Positions 1-14,888 of a stretch of 15,390 nt of DNA are shown piece by piece. Where the stretch lies: the UHGV virus genome UHGV-1727288. The stretch is one strand, 5' to 3'. The first letter of the stretch is position 1. Every line of letters starts with the position of its first letter. Source of the stretch: a virus. The notes below the pieces were generated by a model. The model was not told the DNA's origin and did not search any database. It was given only the letters and a program-made list of their open reading frames with translations. Made by a program: the position numbers and the translations under genes.

Positions 1-323
1 CAGCTCCGGGTGATTACCCTGAAAATACAACCACTATCGCCCCGTTAACGCCATACGATAAATGGGATGGTGAGAAATGGGTGACCGATACTGAGGCACA
101 GCATAGCGCCGCAGTAGACGCGGCAGAAGCACAGCGCCAGTCACTGATTGATGCTGCAATGGCTTCCATCAGTCTGATTCAGCTGAAATTACAGGCCGGA
201 CGGAAGCTGACGCAGGCAGAAACAACCCGACTTAACGCCGTGCTGGATTACATTGACGCGGTGGCGGCAACAGATACCAGCACCGCGCCGGATGTCATCT
301 GGCCTGAACTGCCGGAGGCGTAG
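1..323 (+). CDS. Tail fiber assembly protein, alternative copy (Tfa'), 5'-truncated by window edge
   Basis: Open frame from the window start (codon phase 3, 6, ...) to the stop at 321-323. Translation ...PYDKWDGEKWVTDTEAQ...DVIWPELPEA is typical of tail-fiber-assembly C-termini. It is convergent with and overlaps the 3' end of the minus-strand tfa at 295-323. The track start at 81 is a GTG inside a longer open frame. Confidence 0.6.
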   Translation, partial: APGDYPENTTTIAPLTPYDKWDGEKWVTDTEAQHSAAVDAAEAQRQSLIDAAMASISLIQLKLQAGRKLTQAETTRLNAVLDYIDAVAATDTSTAPDVIWPELPEA

Positions 324-732
324 GCCATTCAATATCTGGCGCACCGGTAGTATCGACTAGCTCCAGTGCGTCCAGATAATCCAGCCACGAATTATATTGC
401 GCCAGTTCCTCGCCTTTCAGACGACCAATAGCGGCTTTACCGGGCCATTGTTTACTGTTCATGTATTCGTTGGCCTGATTAAGCAATAATTGCCTTTCTG
501 ATTCTGCCTGTTGAATAAGTTCTTCATGTGATGGTGGAGGTATTAGTGCCCATGTGGGTAATCCATTTTTTCCTGCAACACGAATTTTGTCATCTGGAGG
601 CGTATTGATTGCAAATTCATTATAAACATCATCACTGACAGCAAGAGCATCATCTGGCCATGAATTTGCATTAATGTAATCATCCTTAAGTGCAGGATTC
701 ACAAAAATGTTTAAAGATGGACTATAAAACAT
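295..732 (-). CDS. G: Tail fiber assembly protein (P2 G-like)
   Basis: 145-aa ORF starting 1 nt after the H stop (TAA 734-736, ATG 730-732). C-terminal ...DIEWPTPPAVQAR resembles the Tfa family and sits at the P2 gene G position. Confidence 0.8.
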   Translation of the reverse strand: MFYSPSLNIFVNPALKDDYINANSWPDDALAVSDDVYNEFAINTPPDDKIRVAGKNGLPTWALIPPPSHEELIQQAESERQLLLNQANEYMNSKQWPGKAAIGRLKGEELAQYNSWLDYLDALELVDTTGAPDIEWPTPPAVQAR

Positions 733-733
733 A

Positions 734-1909
734 TTACACCCCTATAGCGATATAACGACCTAATACAGCGTTTGCAGCAGTCGCTATGCTTGAAAAACCG
801 CGGAACTGATTTGATGTAATTGCAGAAGCCGACAGGATTCCTGCGCCTGAAGGTGCATGCCCCACATGACTAACTATCATTCCATAACATGCTGACGGAA
901 AGGCAAAAGGAAAATCGTTAAGATATCCGGCATCTTCACCACCAGACCCACCAAATCTCGCCTGCCCCCACTGAATAATCAGTGTTCTCCGGGAACCTGA
1001 AATAATTAACGGGATCGTTACATACCCATTCAGGCCAATGACACCCGATGCAGTGCCAGCCAGAGATAATTCTCCCAAACCAAGGTATGTGAGAAGACTA
1101 GGTACATCCTTTCCACTCAAATTAGTCAGCGTATTGTCCAGCGGTTGTTTACCTTCCAGCGCATTGTTAATGGTGGTGCTGAATTTCGGGTCATTGTTAA
1201 TGGCTGCGGCAATTTCTTTCAGTGTATCCATCGTGGCAGGCGCACCGTTAATCAGAGCGGTAATAGCGTCCTGAACAAACGCAGTAGTCGCAATCCGCGT
1301 GGTGTTATTTCCTGCGGTAGGTGTCGGCGCTTTTGGTTCTCCGGTAAATGTCGGATTATGTTTCTGTGCATACTGGGTATGAGGATCCTGTGCGGCAATG
1401 TGGTTTCTCATCTGGTCATCCACATACAGCCTTAATTCCAGGACTTCATCATCCACGTATTTACGGGTCGCCAGTACCACCGACGGGTCAATTTTCAGCG
1501 TAATAGCTTCGGTATTCGTGACAACCAGAATCATGCGGATAGTCTGGGTACGACCGCTGCCTTCCTGCAACTGCGGTTTGTACGTTTCCGGGCAGTTCGC
1601 CACCGCAATGAGTACGCCTTCATCATCGTAAAGCCCAATCTCACGGATCCAGAATCCTCCCTCGTTCTCAGGAATAATTTGCTCCGCAATAATCTGGCTC
1701 TGGTTGTTCGGGTCAACACTCAGAAGATTCAGCGGCGCGATGCGTTTCTGGTTAATCAGTTTTGTCTGTGCCGGGTCTGGTGTCGGCAAGACACCATTCG
1801 CATCACCAACGGCCATTTGCGTCAGATTCAGCTTACTGCCGAGCATCGTCGCGTTAGCCAGCCGTGCTGCGCCCTGATTAGTCAGAATGGCGTAGTATTT
1901 CACTGTCAT
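734..1909 (-). CDS. H: Tail fiber protein (P2 H-like), conserved N-terminus with variable C-terminal receptor-binding part
   Basis: 391-aa ORF. The N-terminal ~150 aa (…MAVGD…GGFW.RE.GLYDD.G.LIAVAN…YKP.L.EGSGR.QT.RM…) match the recalled P2 gpH N-terminus. It sits at the position of P2 H, and its start overlaps the I stop. Confidence 0.85.
   Translation of the reverse strand: MTVKYYAILTNQGAARLANATMLGSKLNLTQMAVGDANGVLPTPDPAQTKLINQKRIAPLNLLSVDPNNQSQIIAEQIIPENEGGFWIREIGLYDDEGVLIAVANCPETYKPQLQEGSGRTQTIRMILVVTNTEAITLKIDPSVVLATRKYVDDEVLELRLYVDDQMRNHIAAQDPHTQYAQKHNPTFTGEPKAPTPTAGNNTTRIATTAFVQDAITALINGAPATMDTLKEIAAAINNDPKFSTTINNALEGKQPLDNTLTNLSGKDVPSLLTYLGLGELSLAGTASGVIGLNGYVTIPLIISGSRRTLIIQWGQARFGGSGGEDAGYLNDFPFAFPSACYGMIVSHVGHAPSGAGILSASAITSNQFRGFSSIATAANAVLGRYIAIGV
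1070..1095. other. Candidate DNA-invertase (Hin/Gin/Cin/Pin family) crossover site inside gene H
   Basis: TTCTCCCAAACC-AA-GGTATGTGAGAA: 26 bp with two 12-bp arms that are inverted repeats (10 of 12 positions) around a central AA. Architecture and AAACCAAGG core resemble hix/gix/cix sites. It lies at the constant/variable junction of H, encoding ...LLTYLGLGE.... Confidence 0.6.
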
Positions 1910-2517
1910 GCGTTTACTCTCAGGTTATCAATTAAATGAATGGCCGAGGCCGGGAAATAATCCCCTCCGACAATAATGGCCTCCGGGGTGTAGGGATAAA
2001 CCGTCAGGGCGTCGCCGTGATAGCATCCCGCACCGGCAAAAATGTTGCCGGTTGTACTTAAACTGATAGCCAGTCCCGTCAGATGGCGGCTTGCCGGTTT
2101 TGCATCAGCAACGAGGCGCTCCAGCTCCTGATACATTTCTTCGGTGATACCCTGCTCAAGCACGCCAACAACGATACGGAACGTCCCCGGCTCCTCGTTG
2201 AGCTGCCACCACTCCCTCACCTCAATCAGATAGCCGAGCGGCTCCACCACACGCCGGATTGCACCTATAGTGCCTTTATGACAGTGAATGAAATACGCAT
2301 CGCGGATAACAGCGCGTTTTGTCGCTTCCGGCCACTTTTCATCCCACCTGTCGACCGAAAACGCCCACGCCAGCCACGGCAGCAGATTTGCCGGGCAGGT
2401 ATCCGGGTTCCACAGCTCACGAATACTGACCGGCGTTTTTTCAATTTCCGCACAGGCTTTTGCGGCGGCAACTTCAAGCGGTGATGAGCCGGTCGGCAGC
2501 AGTCGCGAATCACTCAT
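1906..2517 (-). CDS. I: Baseplate assembly protein I
   Basis: 203-aa ORF; the first ~100 aa match recalled P2 gpI (MSDSRLLPTGSSPLEVAAAKACAEIEKTPV...). Overlaps the J stop and H start as in P2. Confidence 0.9.
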   Translation of the reverse strand: MSDSRLLPTGSSPLEVAAAKACAEIEKTPVSIRELWNPDTCPANLLPWLAWAFSVDRWDEKWPEATKRAVIRDAYFIHCHKGTIGAIRRVVEPLGYLIEVREWWQLNEEPGTFRIVVGVLEQGITEEMYQELERLVADAKPASRHLTGLAISLSTTGNIFAGAGCYHGDALTVYPYTPEAIIVGGDYFPASAIHLIDNLRVNA

Positions 2518-3418
2518 CCGAGCCTCCGGTCACGACGCGGCATTCGGTGCAGAAAGACGCCTGCGTACTGTTGAGCACGATGTCGGCCAGTGGTGCGGCC
2601 AGCTCGACACGCTGCACGCCTTCCACATGCAAAGCGGCATAAATGGCAGACAGACGGATGTCGCGCCCCAGCCGGTGCTGTGCCGTGATGTATGCTTCCA
2701 GTTTTTTCACGGCGGCCGCGCGGATGGGTTCGCTTTCGGGACCAGGGTAAAGGTAAAGCGTGGCGTTTATCTGGTATTCAACGATGGCGGCAGACTGCAC
2801 GGTCACGCGGTCGGCAACCGGCCTGACGTCCTCGCCATTAAGGGCGTTACGCACCACAGCCAGCAGGTCTTCGGATGCGACGCCGTTATTTTCACGTGAC
2901 AGCACAGAGATAGTGACACAGGCAGGAGACGGACTGGTGACAGAAATATCGGCGACACGCCCGTCAGCACTGCGACCATGATACTGATAGGCTCCCACTG
3001 ACCCGGCGACGCTTAAGCCCTCAAAAGCCTGCTGAATACGCAGACGATAATCGGTGTCAGATTCCATCACTGCCGGTGTCGGCGGAATGGTCGAATCATC
3101 TGCCGGGGTGATAATCAGGCGCGTGGTGTTGTAATTGGCACCAATTACATCAAGGTCATTACCGGCAGCACAGGCCAGCATCACCGCCCGTGCGGCCTCA
3201 TTCACACGCTGACGCCAGATAAGCTCACGATAAGCATTTTCCTCCAGCAGTTTAACGAGAGGCTCAGATTCCAGCGTCAGGGTACGGGCGACCGCCTCCT
3301 GCTGGTCTTCCGGGTAAAGGGAAATCAGTGTCGCCTTGCGTTCGGCAAGAATGGTTTCAAAGTCCAGCTCCTCGACCACATCCGGTGCGGGTAGCTGGTT
3401 CAGGTCGATAATCGGCAT
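2510..3418 (-). CDS. J: Baseplate assembly protein J (baseplate wedge)
   Basis: 302-aa ORF, same length as P2 gpJ, with P2-like sequence (MPIIDLNQLPAPDVVEELDFE...). Sits between W and I. Confidence 0.9.
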   Translation of the reverse strand: MPIIDLNQLPAPDVVEELDFETILAERKATLISLYPEDQQEAVARTLTLESEPLVKLLEENAYRELIWRQRVNEAARAVMLACAAGNDLDVIGANYNTTRLIITPADDSTIPPTPAVMESDTDYRLRIQQAFEGLSVAGSVGAYQYHGRSADGRVADISVTSPSPACVTISVLSRENNGVASEDLLAVVRNALNGEDVRPVADRVTVQSAAIVEYQINATLYLYPGPESEPIRAAAVKKLEAYITAQHRLGRDIRLSAIYAALHVEGVQRVELAAPLADIVLNSTQASFCTECRVVTGGSDE

Positions 3419-4535: not shown

Positions 4536-5627
4536 ATGGATACACGCATGTCAGACATTCTAATTACTTATGATGAACGGAAAGATAAATTTGAGTCCTA
4601 TGCCCTTACTCTTAAATCGTTATTAACCACGTTAATTCGCAATGAAAAAATTTCAATTCACTCACTTGAATCAAGAGTTAAAACAAAAAAAAGCCTTGAA
4701 GGTAAGATTAATAAAAAGGGAAAATACAAGTCTATAGATGATATTACTGATATCGTTGGTATCAGGATCATCACACATTATGCTGATGATGTTGATAAGA
4801 TAGCTGCTATAGTTGAAAAGGAGTTCACCATTGACCAAGAGAACTCTATTGATAAAAGAACCTCAATTGCGCCTGATAAATTTGGTTACCTATCACTTCA
4901 TTATATAGTAACTTTAAACTCAACCAGAACAAACTTAAAAGAATATGAAGTATATAAAAACATCAAAGCCGAATTACAAATACGATCAATCCTTCAGCAT
5001 GCCTGGGCGGAGATTGAACACGACATTGGTTATAAGTCGGCCACAGGACTGCCTAATGAAATAAGAAGATACTTTTCACGCTTAGCTGGTCTTTTAGAAA
5101 TGGCCGATGATGAATTTATTAAAATCAGAAAAAAGATTTCTGAACGGCAGAAAGAGGTTGCAAAAGAACTAGAGCAAGGAACTAGTGATTCAGTTTTAGA
5201 TATTTTCACTTTGGATGAATTCTTAAACACAAGTCGAGTTATGAGTGAACTTTCAGAAGAGATAAAAGAAAAAACAGGAATCACAGTACATGGCCGATAC
5301 AAGGATAAAGATTTGGGATACCTACTAAATGGTTTAAACCTAGCCAACATAACTACAATAGAACAACTCAATCAAAAACTCTCACAAATGAAAAAGCAGA
5401 TCGTAGATAGAATATTCTGCTTCGGAGAACCATTTATTAATTATTGCAGAGAAACCACCATGCCAAAAGAAGCTCTTTTGAGTTATTTATGTCAAATTAT
5501 CGTTGCGTTTCAAAACTCACCTTCGTTAGAATCTGAATTTAATAACAAAGCAGGTTTAAATCTGAAAAACAGCGATATCTCCGATTTTTTCTCGAATATA
5601 AGAGAAAACATAAGCACACAACCTTAG
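4536..5627 (+). CDS. RelA/SpoT-synthetase-domain protein; candidate fused toxSAS toxin-antitoxin (CapRel-like) anti-phage defense protein
   Basis: The N-terminal half has the synthetase motifs of RelA/SpoT nucleotidyltransferases: SRVKTKKSLEGKINKK, DIVGIRIITHYADD, GYLSLHYIV, ELQIRSILQHAWAEIEHDIGYK. The ~160-aa C-terminal extension has no motif I recognise. No adjacent small antitoxin ORF. AT-rich and on the opposite strand to the flanking phage genes. Start is ambiguous: TTG 4527, ATG 4536 or ATG 4548. Confidence 0.8.
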   Translation: MDTRMSDILITYDERKDKFESYALTLKSLLTTLIRNEKISIHSLESRVKTKKSLEGKINKKGKYKSIDDITDIVGIRIITHYADDVDKIAAIVEKEFTIDQENSIDKRTSIAPDKFGYLSLHYIVTLNSTRTNLKEYEVYKNIKAELQIRSILQHAWAEIEHDIGYKSATGLPNEIRRYFSRLAGLLEMADDEFIKIRKKISERQKEVAKELEQGTSDSVLDIFTLDEFLNTSRVMSELSEEIKEKTGITVHGRYKDKDLGYLLNGLNLANITTIEQLNQKLSQMKKQIVDRIFCFGEPFINYCRETTMPKEALLSYLCQIIVAFQNSPSLESEFNNKAGLNLKNSDISDFFSNIRENISTQP

Positions 5628-5656: not shown

Positions 5657-5682
5657 CTGCTGCCGGTAAGCACCGGCAGCAG
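5657..5682. terminator. Hairpin between convergent genes (toxSAS gene and S), likely terminator
   Basis: Perfect inverted repeat CTGCTGCCGGT-aagc-ACCGGCAGCAG (11-bp stem, 4-nt loop), 30 nt after the toxSAS stop and 26 nt beyond the S stop. The minus-strand side is followed by a moderately T-rich tract (GTCTTCTGTT); the plus-strand side is not. Confidence 0.55.
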
Positions 5683-11053: not shown

Positions 11054-11908
11054 TCAGCAGTTCGTCATCAGGGCGTCACCACCACCGCCGGTGGCTTTGC
11101 TGCGGCGCTGCTGGGTCAGACTTTCGGTGTGGTCGAGACTGTTTTTCAGGCGGGTGAATGCCTGGCTGGTTTCATCCGCCCTGTCAGTCACATCCTGCTT
11201 AAGTGCAGAAAAGGCGGTTTCCATCTCTGCGAGGCGCTGCTCAGTGGCGCTCAGTTTTTCCTGCACATGCTCAGCGACAGCGGTCACCGCTTCATGCACG
11301 TCATTCAGACGGGCGTCATCGCTGGCCTGTTTGCGGCCAAAAATGGATTTCACCTTTTCGGTCAGGGCGGTGAACACGGTTTCAGGCAGGTCTTCAAATT
11401 CCAGCTCAACGGGCGTTGCCACTGAAATCAGGTTTTCAGGGCTTAATTTGAAGCGGTTCAGAGGGTTGTGTTTTGCCGTGCGGCAGAATTCCAGGTATTC
11501 CGTGCCGAGGCTTGCCGGGTCATCGGTGACGGCCAGCCCCACCAGATAACATTTGCCGGTATTGGCAAAGTTCGGCTGAATTTCCATTGAGGTGTAGACC
11601 TTCTGCGCGGCCTTGTTCATCGCGATAAGGTCATCTGTCGGGGTGATTTTCGCAAACAGCGCCCATTTGCCTTTCAGCGCCGAATCATCGTCAATCTTTT
11701 CGGCCTTCAGTTCGGCCACATCGCCATAACGCTTAAAAATACCGTCAGGCAGGATGCCGCGCAGATGTTCCAGGTTAATGCGGCAACCATAGACACGCGG
11801 GTCAAAGGTTTCGGCCATTTCCTGAATATCCTGCGCACTGATGACACGCCCGTCACAGGTGTCACCCTCAACGCCGATACGAAAGAATTTTGAGACTTTT
11901 TTTGCCAT
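11054..11908 (-). CDS. O: Capsid scaffolding protein O
   Basis: From the ATG at 11906-11908 (MAKKVSKFFRIGVEGDTCDGRVISAQDIQEMAETFDPRVYG...) the product is 284 aa, matching recalled P2 gpO. The track ORF is extended 22 codons upstream. Confidence 0.9.
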   Translation of the reverse strand: MAKKVSKFFRIGVEGDTCDGRVISAQDIQEMAETFDPRVYGCRINLEHLRGILPDGIFKRYGDVAELKAEKIDDDSALKGKWALFAKITPTDDLIAMNKAAQKVYTSMEIQPNFANTGKCYLVGLAVTDDPASLGTEYLEFCRTAKHNPLNRFKLSPENLISVATPVELEFEDLPETVFTALTEKVKSIFGRKQASDDARLNDVHEAVTAVAEHVQEKLSATEQRLAEMETAFSALKQDVTDRADETSQAFTRLKNSLDHTESLTQQRRSKATGGGGDALMTNC

Positions 11909-12081: not shown

Positions 12082-13854
12082 ATGACCATCACCACAGACA
12101 CCACTCTTTTACACGACCCGCGTCGTCAGGCGGCGCTGCTGTACTGGCAGGGGTTTTCCGTGCCGCAGATTGCCGCCATGTTGCAGATGAAACGCCCGAC
12201 GGTGCAGAGCTGGAAACAGCGCGACGGCTGGGACAGTGTTGCCCCCATCAGCCGTGTCGAAATGAGTCTGGAAGCGCGGCTGACCCAGCTCATCATCAAA
12301 CCGCAGAAAACCGGCGGTGACTTCAAGGAAATTGACCTGCTGGGACGCCAGATTGAACGACTGGCACGGGTCAACCGCTACAGCCAGACCGGCAACGAAG
12401 CAGACCTTAATCCGAACGTCGCTAACCGCAACAAAGGCGGGCGTCGCAAACCGAAAAAGAATTTTTTCAGTGACGAGGCCATCGAAAAGCTGGAGCAGAT
12501 TTTCTTTGAGCAGTCTTTCGACTATCAGTTGCACTGGTATCGCGCCGGGCTTGAGCACCGCATCCGCGATATCCTGAAATCCCGCCAGATTGGCGCGACG
12601 TTTTATTTTTCCCGCGAGGCGCTGCTGCGCGCCCTGAAAACCGGTCATAACCAGATTTTTCTGTCGGCCAGTAAAACGCAGGCGTATGTGTTCCGCGAAT
12701 ACATCATCGCCTTTGCCCGGCTGGTTGACGTTGACCTGACCGGTGACCCGATTGTCCTGGGCAATAACGGCGCAAAACTGATTTTTCTCGGCACCAACTC
12801 CAACACCGCGCAGAGCCATAACGGCGACCTGTACGTCGACGAGATTTTCTGGATCCCGAATTTTCAGGTACTGCGTAAGGTGGCATCAGGTATGGCCTCA
12901 CAGAGTCACCTGCGTTCGACCTATTTCTCCACCCCGTCCACGCTGGCGCACGACGCCTACCCGTTCTGGTCGGGTGAACTGTTTAACCGGGGACGCGCCA
13001 GCGCCGCTGAACGCGTGGAAATCGACGTCAGTCATAACGCCCTTGCCGGTGGGCTTCTCTGTGCGGACGGCCAGTGGCGGCAGATTGTCACCATTGAGGA
13101 CGCCCTGAAAGGTGGCTGCACGCTGTTCGACATTGAGCAGCTTAAACGCGAAAACAGCGCCGACGATTTTAAAAACCTGTTCATGTGTGAATTTGTTGAC
13201 GACAAGGCGTCGGTGTTCCCGTTCGAGGAGCTGCAACGCTGCATGGTCGACACGCTGGAAGAATGGGAAGACTATGCGCCGTTTGCCACCAATCCGTTCG
13301 GCTCACGTCCGGTATGGATTGGTTACGACCCGTCACACCGTGGCGACAGCGCCGGATGCGTGGTGCTGGCACCGCCGGTGGTGGCCGGTGGCAAATTCAG
13401 AATACTTGAGCGTCACCAGTGGAAAGGCATGGACTTTGCCACCCAGGCTGAATCCATCCGCAAACTCACCGAAAAATACAACGTCGAATACATCGGAATT
13501 GATGCCACCGGCCTCGGTGTCGGCGTGTTCCAGCTCGTGCGCTCGTTCTATCCCGCCGCGCGCGATATCCGCTACACGCCGGAAATGAAAACCGCAATGG
13601 TGCTCAAGGCAAAAGACGTTATCCGCCGTGGCTGTCTGGAATATGACGTCAGCGCCACCGACATCACCAGCTCGTTTATGGCTATCCGCAAGACCATGAC
13701 CAGCAGTGGACGCAGCGCCACCTATGAGGCCAGCCGCAGCGAGGAAGCCAGCCACGCCGACCTCGCCTGGGCGACCATGCACGCCCTGTTAAATGAGCCA
13801 CTCACCGCCGGTATCAGCACCCCGCTGACATCCACCATTCTGGAGTTTTACTGA
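12082..13854 (+). CDS. P: Terminase large (ATPase) subunit P
   Basis: From the ATG at 12082 (MTITTDTTLLHDPRRQAALLYWQGFSVPQIAAMLQ...) the product is 590 aa, matching recalled P2 gpP. GAGGT Shine-Dalgarno 8 nt upstream. The track ORF starts 10 codons earlier. Confidence 0.93.
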   Translation: MTITTDTTLLHDPRRQAALLYWQGFSVPQIAAMLQMKRPTVQSWKQRDGWDSVAPISRVEMSLEARLTQLIIKPQKTGGDFKEIDLLGRQIERLARVNRYSQTGNEADLNPNVANRNKGGRRKPKKNFFSDEAIEKLEQIFFEQSFDYQLHWYRAGLEHRIRDILKSRQIGATFYFSREALLRALKTGHNQIFLSASKTQAYVFREYIIAFARLVDVDLTGDPIVLGNNGAKLIFLGTNSNTAQSHNGDLYVDEIFWIPNFQVLRKVASGMASQSHLRSTYFSTPSTLAHDAYPFWSGELFNRGRASAAERVEIDVSHNALAGGLLCADGQWRQIVTIEDALKGGCTLFDIEQLKRENSADDFKNLFMCEFVDDKASVFPFEELQRCMVDTLEEWEDYAPFATNPFGSRPVWIGYDPSHRGDSAGCVVLAPPVVAGGKFRILERHQWKGMDFATQAESIRKLTEKYNVEYIGIDATGLGVGVFQLVRSFYPAARDIRYTPEMKTAMVLKAKDVIRRGCLEYDVSATDITSSFMAIRKTMTSSGRSATYEASRSEEASHADLAWATMHALLNEPLTAGISTPLTSTILEFY

Positions 13855-14888
13855 TGAGCAAGAAAAAAGGGAAAACACCGCAACCTGCGGCAAAAAAAAT
13901 GACCGCCAGCGCCCCGAAAATGGAAGCATTCACCTTTGGCGAGCCAGTGCCGGTACTCGACCGCCGTGACATTCTGGATTATGTCGAGTGCATCAGTAAC
14001 GGCAGATGGTATGAGCCACCGGTCAGCTTTACCGGTCTGGCAAAAAGCCTGCGTGCTGCCGTGCATCACAGCTCACCGATTTACGTCAAACGCAATATTC
14101 TGGCCTCGACATTTATCCCGCACCCGTGGCTTTCCCAGCAGGATTTCAGCCGCTTTGTGCTGGATTTTCTGGTGTTCGGTAATGCGTTTCTGGAAAAGCG
14201 TTACAGCACCACCGGTAAGGTCATCAGACTGGAAACCTCACCGGCAAAATATACCCGCCGTGGCGTGGAGGAGGATGTTTACTGGTGGGTGCCGTCCTTC
14301 AACGAGCCGACACCTTTCGCGCCCGGCTCCGTGTTTCACCTGCTGGAGCCGGATATTAATCAGGAGCTGTACGGCCTGCCGGAATATCTCAGCGCCCTTA
14401 ACTCTGCCTGGCTGAATGAGTCGGCCACGCTGTTCCGCCGCAAGTATTACGAAAACGGCGCACATGCCGGATACATCATGTACGTCACTGATGCCGTGCA
14501 GGATCGCAACGATATCGAAATGCTTCGCGAAAACATGGTGAAGTCGAAAGGCCGCAACAACTTTAAAAATCTGTTTCTCTACGCCCCGCAGGGAAAAGCC
14601 GACGGCATTAAAATTATCCCGCTCAGTGAAGTGGCGACGAAAGACGATTTTTTTAATATCAAAAAAGCCAGCGCCGCTGACCTGCTGGACGCGCACCGCA
14701 TCCCCTTTCAGTTGATGGGCGGCAAGCCGGAGAATGTCGGGTCGCTGGGGGATATTGAGAAAGTGGCAAAGGTCTTTGTCCGCAATGAGCTTATCCCGTT
14801 ACAGGACAGGATCCGCGAGATAAACGGCTGGCTCGGTCAGGAGGTCATCCGCTTTAAAAACTACTCACTGGACACTGACAACGGCTGA
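13854..14888 (+). CDS. Q: Portal (capsid portal vertex) protein Q
   Basis: 344-aa ORF matching P2 gpQ in length and position. Its start overlaps the P stop (TGATG). Confidence 0.92.
   Translation: MSKKKGKTPQPAAKKMTASAPKMEAFTFGEPVPVLDRRDILDYVECISNGRWYEPPVSFTGLAKSLRAAVHHSSPIYVKRNILASTFIPHPWLSQQDFSRFVLDFLVFGNAFLEKRYSTTGKVIRLETSPAKYTRRGVEEDVYWWVPSFNEPTPFAPGSVFHLLEPDINQELYGLPEYLSALNSAWLNESATLFRRKYYENGAHAGYIMYVTDAVQDRNDIEMLRENMVKSKGRNNFKNLFLYAPQGKADGIKIIPLSEVATKDDFFNIKKASAADLLDAHRIPFQLMGGKPENVGSLGDIEKVAKVFVRNELIPLQDRIREINGWLGQEVIRFKNYSLDTDNG

Follow-up and report, generated by a model that had tools for sequence, protein, structure and literature searches.

Evidence for a Pin/Cin-type crossover site within tail fiber gene H of a P2-like E. 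coli prophage lineage

Does a 26-bp sequence inside the tail fiber gene of a P2-like prophage mark the point at which one receptor-binding tip is exchanged for another by DNA inversion? The question is raised by a 15,390-nucleotide stretch of viral DNA (UHGV virus genome UHGV-1727288), referred to here in its entirety as the window, in which an earlier note, made from the letters alone, had proposed a serine-invertase crossover site. Our analysis leads us to regard it as highly probable that positions 1070-1095 function as a crossover site of the Pin/Cin type in a lineage of P2-like E. coli prophages. Since the window is a whole metagenome contig and its own left flank is nonexistent, the tests were run in close prophages, chiefly that of isolate SC477 (L001). 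The features considered below are as follows, in window coordinates.

1070..1095, unstranded: very probable 26-bp serine-invertase crossover site (pix/cix type), TTCTCCCAAACC-AA-GGTATGTGAGAA, with matches in e14 and P1 gene S
1082..1083, unstranded: central AA/TT dinucleotide, within codon 276 of H, where staggered cleavage and strand exchange presumably take place
1084..1909, minus strand: constant, non-inverting 5' part of H (codons 1-276); Pfam Phage_tail_fib at residues 1-150, E = 1e-62
734..1081, minus strand: variable 3' part of H, expressed in the window orientation; Pfam Gp53-like_C at residues 310-390, E = 1.6e-11
295..732, minus strand: 145-aa tail fiber assembly chaperone, within the invertible segment; Pfam Caudo_TAP, E = 1e-32
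1..323, plus strand: final 106 codons (3' end) of a convergent tfaE-like chaperone gene, truncated where the contig stops; Caudo_TAP, E = 1.8e-27
1..1083, unstranded: window part of the 1,901-bp invertible segment, as delimited in L001 coordinates; the remainder would extend to window-equivalent position -817

The fiber gene and the site within it

The minus-strand open reading frame at 734..1909 encodes a 391-aa protein with a match to Pfam Phage_tail_fib (Phage tail-collar fibre protein, N-terminal; E = 1e-62). Its neighbors are the P2-type genes I, J, W, and V, and it is therefore the equivalent of P2 H. The constant part, an N-terminus like that of P2 H, serves for attachment to the baseplate, and the Gp53-like C-terminal domain is presumed to be the receptor-binding tip. 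A prefix of 280 residues is identical in both orientation forms described below, while residues 281-391 are unique to the window's form, so that the earlier proposal of a P2-H-like constant N-terminus joined to a variable C-terminus at the site was borne out. In the flipped isolate SC455 the 734..1081 stretch is silent and adjoins the invertase. The 145-aa chaperone is cognate to the currently expressed C-terminus and travels with the segment in the SC455 prophage (L003), and the tfaE-like gene at 1..323 belongs to the silent alternative cassette; in L001 the full tfaE-like gene encodes 200 aa and is 90% identical to e14 TfaE. Two convergent chaperone genes are the hallmark of the Mu G and P1 C segments, and both are present in the window (295..732, minus strand; 1..323, plus strand).

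The 26-mer, TTCTCCCAAACCAAGGTATGTGAGAA, lies at 1070-1095 on the plus strand, exactly where the earlier note had placed it and with the same sequence. The note's description of two imperfect 12-bp arms around a 2-bp core also holds, the arms being complementary at 10 of 12 positions around an AA core. The half-site at 1070-1081 falls within the invertible segment and that at 1084-1095 within the constant part of H. Translated as part of H, the site spans codons 272-280 and reads LLTYLGLGE, in agreement with the claimed position about 272 codons into the gene. A homology boundary coincides exactly with position 1070, since S164, MET_P1_103_31, 500465-2, and the flipped isolate SC455 align only rightwards of it.

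The shape of the palindrome is not distinctive by itself, because four 12-2-12 palindromes with at least 10 of 12 matching positions were found in the window compared to ∼0.7 in shuffles; palindromic architecture alone was consequently dropped as evidence. Three further palindromes were noted in this search. The first, CTGCTGCCGGTAAGCACCGGCAGCAG (5657-5682; 11/12 perfect), is situated just past a RelA/SpoT-like gene and is probably the terminator hairpin of that gene. The other two, TGTTGTAATTGGCACCAATTACATCA (3127-3152; 11/12) in the coding region of gene J and GTAATGCGTTTCTGGAAAAGCGTTAC (14179-14204; 10/12), likewise in a coding region, are unlike an invertase site.

More informative was the comparison with six reference crossover sites, extracted from the deposited records of P1 (L004), Mu (L005), and e14 of E. 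coli K-12 (L006). The window site is identical at 22 of 26 positions to the e14 site TTCTCCCAAACCAAGGTTTTCGAGAG and at 21 of 26 to the P1 site in gene S, TTCTCTTAAACCAAGGTATTGGATAA, which upholds the suggested likeness to known serine-invertase sites. Chance alone would produce agreement with any of the six at 21 or more of 26 positions ∼7e-4 times per window.

The window is the entire ENA contig ERZ1303392 NODE_2358_length_15390_cov_3.36, with ∼3.4x coverage. Its position 1 falls within the tfaE-like gene, and the DNA at this left end is common to many prophages at ∼90% identity. The assembly probably broke here because of the shared repeat or because of mixed orientations.

Partner site, invertase, and inversion in close relatives

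In whole-window searches of complete E. coli genomes and of phages, the best match was 99.1% identical. Three complete genomes were 99.7% identical over window positions 1-2000, all of them called in the window's orientation. The prophages used for the tests were 99.7% identical over these first 2000 positions and 99.1% and 98.5% identical over the whole window; the left flanks of both L001 (SC477) and L002 (strain 401651) were examined, and window-equivalent coordinates are given as L001 coordinates minus 6000. Left of the window, L001 and L002 carry, in order, the rest of the tfaE-like gene, a Collar-domain fragment, a 26-bp site, and the gene for a 197-aa invertase. The invertase and the partner site are seen in relatives only, because the contig ends inside the invertible segment, 804 bp short of the predicted position of the partner site.

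The partner site, TTTTCATAAACGTTGGTTTGGGAGAA, is located at L001 5171-5196 (window-equivalent -829..-804). Among inverted repeats of the window site it ranks first, the two arms being separated by 1,873 bp. The two sites have the same inner half-site and core; that of the partner reads TT (AA on the other strand), and an AA core is common to both sites once they are aligned in inverted orientation. The reverse complement of the partner is identical at 26 of 26 positions to the pinE-proximal site of e14. An inverted partner left of the window, as the earlier note had predicted, thus exists in the 99.7%-identical prophages 1,873 bp leftward, the window's own flank being absent. Scans of L001, L002, and L003 allowing up to 8 mismatches returned exactly two crossover sites, and no extra ones of the kind a multi-inversion system would have.

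The silent Collar-domain cassette of L001 (5146-5721, plus strand) is annotated in RefSeq as a stand-alone 191-aa "phage tail protein" with an ATG upstream of the crossover site, and its K-12 equivalent, stfE (L006), carries a pseudogene label. A more fitting description of both is that of alternative 3' cassettes of the fiber gene that lack a promoter.

The invertase gene of L001 (4522..5115; window-equivalent -1478..-885) is annotated "recombinase family protein," and its 5' end faces the partner site. The 197-aa product matches Pfam Resolvase (E = 6e-53) and HTH_7 (E = 1e-12) as well as the crystal structure of Mu Gin, 3UJ3, over residues 1-184 (E = 3.6e-95), and its sequence identity is 84.8% with PinE, 78.0% with Cin, and 77.0% with Gin. 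It retains Ser9, Arg42, and His106. Fis/enhancer-dependent invertases are set apart from resolvases by conserved basic residues at Hin positions 47/48/51 together with Gln151, Arg154, and Leu155 (McLean 2013, PMC3798978), and the Fis/enhancer-contact residues K46, K47, R50, Q150, R153, and L154 (Gin numbering, i.e., Hin numbering minus 1) are all kept in the 197-aa protein. The relatives thereby supply, beside the partner site, the adjacent serine invertase of about 190 aa that had been anticipated.

A recombinational enhancer would be expected in cis within the 5' portion of the invertase gene, as two Fis sites ∼47 bp apart. Over its first 150 nt this gene shares 88% identity with pinE and 71-75% with gin and cin, and a strict search of the four aligned invertase genes found no conserved G-N13-C Fis core pair with a spacing of 44-52 bp. 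Homology to these genes suggests that an enhancer may nevertheless reside in the invertase gene.

The consequence of inversion could be followed directly. When the 1,901 bp running from one core to the other (L001 5183-7083) were reverse-complemented in silico, the H frame remained open, with a 454-aa product that shares the same 280 N-terminal residues and continues with GSALPVGVPVPWP... into a Collar-domain StfE-like C-terminus. A 1,000-bp query over this hypothetical flipped junction was 100.0% identical to NZ_LR778146.1, the genome of isolate SC455, which belongs to the same deposit series as SC477. Over 13,917 bp, the SC455 prophage and the in-silico flipped L001 show 0 mismatches, and the natural sequences of the two isolates differ solely within L001 5197-7069, strictly between the two 26-bp sites. 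The breakpoint of this natural inversion is confined to 14 bp, namely the inner half-site plus the core. An identical inverted repeat of just 14 bp speaks for site-specific exchange at the core rather than ordinary homologous recombination.

The RefSeq annotation of SC455 contains the 454-aa fusion, with residues 1-280 being those of the window's H. Among complete E. coli genomes matched at a coverage of at least 80%, the flipped junction was present in 20 and the window's junction in 26. The 280-aa prefix is followed either by 111 aa (Gp53-like_C) and a 145-aa Caudo_TAP protein or by 174 aa (Collar) and a 200-aa Caudo_TAP protein. Both orientations are thus seen in nature, in the SC455/SC477 pair as a base-perfect inversion.

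Proposed mechanism and alternative explanations

We hold with considerable confidence that 1070-1095 is the fiber-gene-proximal site of a two-site DNA-inversion switch, operated in a P2-like prophage by a serine invertase of the Pin/Cin/Gin type. The invertase encoded just past the contig's left end would bind, as dimers, to the window site and to the inverted partner 1.9 kb away, and the dimers on the two sites would assemble with a Fis-bound enhancer on supercoiled DNA, as in the Hin/Gin literature (PMC3798978). At each of the two sites, Ser9 would then cut both strands in a staggered manner at the central AA/TT dinucleotide (PMC3798978), one pair of subunits would rotate by 180 degrees, and religation of the ends would leave the 1,901-bp segment inverted. 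Cleavage at the core and the dependence on Fis and the enhancer are carried over here, by analogy, from the Hin/Gin mechanism. Just the cassette joined to codon 276 would be expressed, because both transcription and translation begin in the constant portion of H. The window orientation would give the 391-aa fiber with the Gp53-like C-terminus together with the 145-aa chaperone, and the other orientation would give the 454-aa fiber with the Collar/StfE-like C-terminus together with the 200-aa TfaE chaperone. By analogy with Mu and P1, the likely outcome would be two alternative host-receptor specificities in one lysogen population.

What remains chiefly in doubt is whether the contig's source genome still has the invertase. 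If the enzyme had been lost or inactivated there, the 26-mer would be an unused relic and the fiber would be locked in its Gp53-like form, an explanation that we consider very unlikely. It draws some support from the contig, which stops before the invertase position, and from a comparison of prophages whose gpI or gpJ is identical to that of the window. In this comparison the sites tend to accompany the invertase: L008, L012, and L013 possess the enzyme together with two canonical sites, and both enzyme and sites are missing from L014-L017, whose H is of the long classical P2 type. Two prophages with the window's gpI (L007 and L011) have lost the invertase, the silent cassette, and the second convergent chaperone; their H protein is 507 aa long, and in L011 a 51-aa HTH_7 fragment is what is left of the invertase. 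These two are locked descendants of the switch, and loss therefore does occur in the lineage.

The window nevertheless differs from such locked forms. The sole site of L007 and L011, at 11639-11664 in each, has decayed to TTCTCCCAAACCAAGATAATCAAGAA, and the second convergent chaperone that they lack is represented in the window by the tfaE 3' end at 1-323. The window site is moreover identical to that of the SC477/SC455 pair, which did invert, and the invertase is present in both of the close genomes whose flank was examined (L001 and L002). We infer that it is present in the genome behind the contig as well. Even after such a loss, a co-resident PinE could still recombine the window site, since invertases of the Din family can substitute for one another in trans.

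It is extremely improbable that the 26-mer is no recombination site at all but a chance palindrome or the coding sequence of an LGLGE linker, with the inversions arising through RecA-dependent recombination between short inverted repeats. The 26-mer is indeed coding, LGL-type motifs recur at the same position in fibers, and, as the four palindromes of the window (∼0.7 expected) illustrate, 12-2-12 symmetry is not rare here. However, the partner half-site by the invertase lies outside any expressed gene and is yet identical to e14 at 26 of 26 positions, and a dedicated invertase of the Gin family directly adjoins it. Resemblance to known sites at 21 or more of 26 positions, expected 7e-4 times by chance, also speaks against a coincidence. 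Finally, the inversion is base-perfect although the identical inverted repeat measures just 14 bp, a length far below that of efficient RecA substrates.

A multi-site, shufflon-like arrangement with more than two crossover sites and at least three fiber C-termini, as in the p15B Min system or in the P2-like EPEC prophage with three repeats and four variants (Goldberg 2014, PMC4272514), has a negligible probability here, as L001, L002, and L003 have exactly two sites (up to 8 mismatches) and the segment contains just two fiber C-termini and two chaperones. A true shufflon, with an Rci tyrosine recombinase and 19-bp sfx sites, was rejected on the grounds that the recombinase is of the serine type (Resolvase) and that there are only two sites, of 26 bp.

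Alongside the two-site switch that we favor, some related prophages show a variation of the sites themselves. L009 and L010 have the invertase, with crossover sites that are hybrid: the outer half-sites and the TT core are canonical (TTCTCGCATACC-TT / TTTTCTTAAACG-TT), and the inner half-sites are the noncanonical CAATTGAAATCG, which starts an 83-bp inverted repeat with 81% complementarity (copies in L009 at 11423-11505 and 13188-13270). The noncanonical inner halves look as if they had come from recombination with a quasi-site, and the hybrid sites may derive from one. Across related prophages, one and the same gpI/H N-terminus is joined at the crossover position to several differing C-termini, and the partner site and TfaE cassette recur nearly verbatim in the lambdoid e14 element. 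We regard it as unlikely, though worth stating, that the crossover site is a general splice point at which unrelated phages exchange fiber-tip cassettes. Should the mosaicism be driven by invertase-mediated exchange between co-resident prophages, rather than by ordinary homologous recombination, the switch would in addition promote the horizontal evolution of host range; the splice-point idea is old in the literature, however, and even if true it would be moderately new at most.

Relation to known inversion systems

The evidence supports assignment of the system to the Din-family serine-invertase switches and to the tail-fiber cassettes typified by Mu G, P1 C, and e14 P. The closest relative is the P segment of e14 in K-12 with its invertase PinE (84.8% identical; pix sites; stfP-tfaP / stfE-tfaE). 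Its invertase-proximal site is identical to that of the prophage at 26 of 26 positions and its fiber-gene site at 22 of 26, and in both elements the 5' end of the invertase gene adjoins a site. The silent cassette of e14 is also homologous, with 90% identity for TfaE and 56% overall for the StfE-like C-terminus, which is near-identical over its first ∼100 residues. The two differ in their chassis, which here is an intact-looking late operon of a P2-type myovirus (V W J I H) and in e14 a defective lambdoid remnant. They also differ in the constant part, here the P2 H N-terminus, and in the expressed cassette, a Gp53-like C-terminus plus a 145-aa chaperone instead of StfP/TfaP.

In P1, the S/U and S'/U' cassettes of the C segment are arranged convergently in the same way as here, and Cin is 78.0% identical to the invertase, with the gene S cix site matching at 21/26. 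The cin gene, however, precedes the segment, with a cix site overlapping its 3' end, and P1 has 0.6-kb inverted repeats inside the segment, whereas the identical repeat here amounts to only 14 bp (half-site plus core). The Mu G segment, with Gin (77.0% identical; 3UJ3, E = 3.6e-95), resembles the present system in having a constant Sc, alternative Sv/Sv' parts with U/U' chaperones, and the 5' end of gin by a site. Its gix sites (TTCCTGTAAACCGAGGTTTTGGATAA) are in contrast more divergent, differing from the window site at more than 8 positions and carrying GA instead of AA at the core. The Mu G / P1 C arrangement ascribed to this locus beforehand was recovered in the close prophages: constant H, site, variable C-terminus with chaperone, convergent second chaperone with a second, promoterless C-terminus, partner site, and invertase. 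Hin of the Salmonella H segment belongs to the same enzyme subclass and uses 26-bp sites of the same architecture, and the Fis/enhancer-contact residues defined in Hin are all kept here. Hin flips a promoter and so switches flagellin, whereas the system described here flips coding cassettes and so creates in-frame gene fusions. The Fin invertase of Fels-2 was reportedly the subject of work by Kutsukake in 2006.

The same class of element has been described in the P2-like prophages of EPEC E2348/69, which we liken to the present one by description (tail-fiber inversions, an invertase, and inverted repeats; PMC4272514). For these prophages and e14, inversion was shown by sequencing and PCR (Goldberg 2014, PMC4272514), and sequencing showed coexisting tail-fiber variants in the P2-like prophages of this strain (PMC4272514). 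One EPEC prophage has three repeats and four variants, compared to the simple two-site, two-variant form found here. Because inversion in P2-like E. coli prophages had already been demonstrated by that work (Goldberg 2014, PMC4272514), the present switch is known in kind. It also introduces no new principle, host-range switching of phages by Din-family invertases having been known since Mu, P1, and e14.

The practical consequences concern annotation and prediction. The 391-aa "phage tail protein" of the contig is to be read as one of two alternative fibers, and promoterless fragments lying by an invertase in related genomes as silent cassettes rather than pseudogenes. Either orientation can turn up in assemblies and metagenome bins, which can also break at the switch. 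For host-range prediction and for the engineering of P2-like phages or tailocins, both receptor-binding tips are needed.

A separate observation concerns the gene that precedes the putative terminator mentioned above. Inserted in antisense between P2 genes S and V, at window positions 4548-5627 on the plus strand, it encodes a 359-aa protein with Pfam RelA_SpoT at residues 42-165, and the gene is missing from most related P2-like prophages; L014 has a different RelA_SpoT gene (424 aa) at another position. The best PDB matches of the 359-aa protein are small alarmone synthetases of the YjbM/RelQ type (E ∼ 1e-15, residues 19-206), the C-terminal ∼150 aa having no assignment, and the PADLOC candidate defence family PDC-S33 matches it with E = 1e-16. 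This protein may thus be a toxic, alarmone-synthetase-type anti-phage moron.
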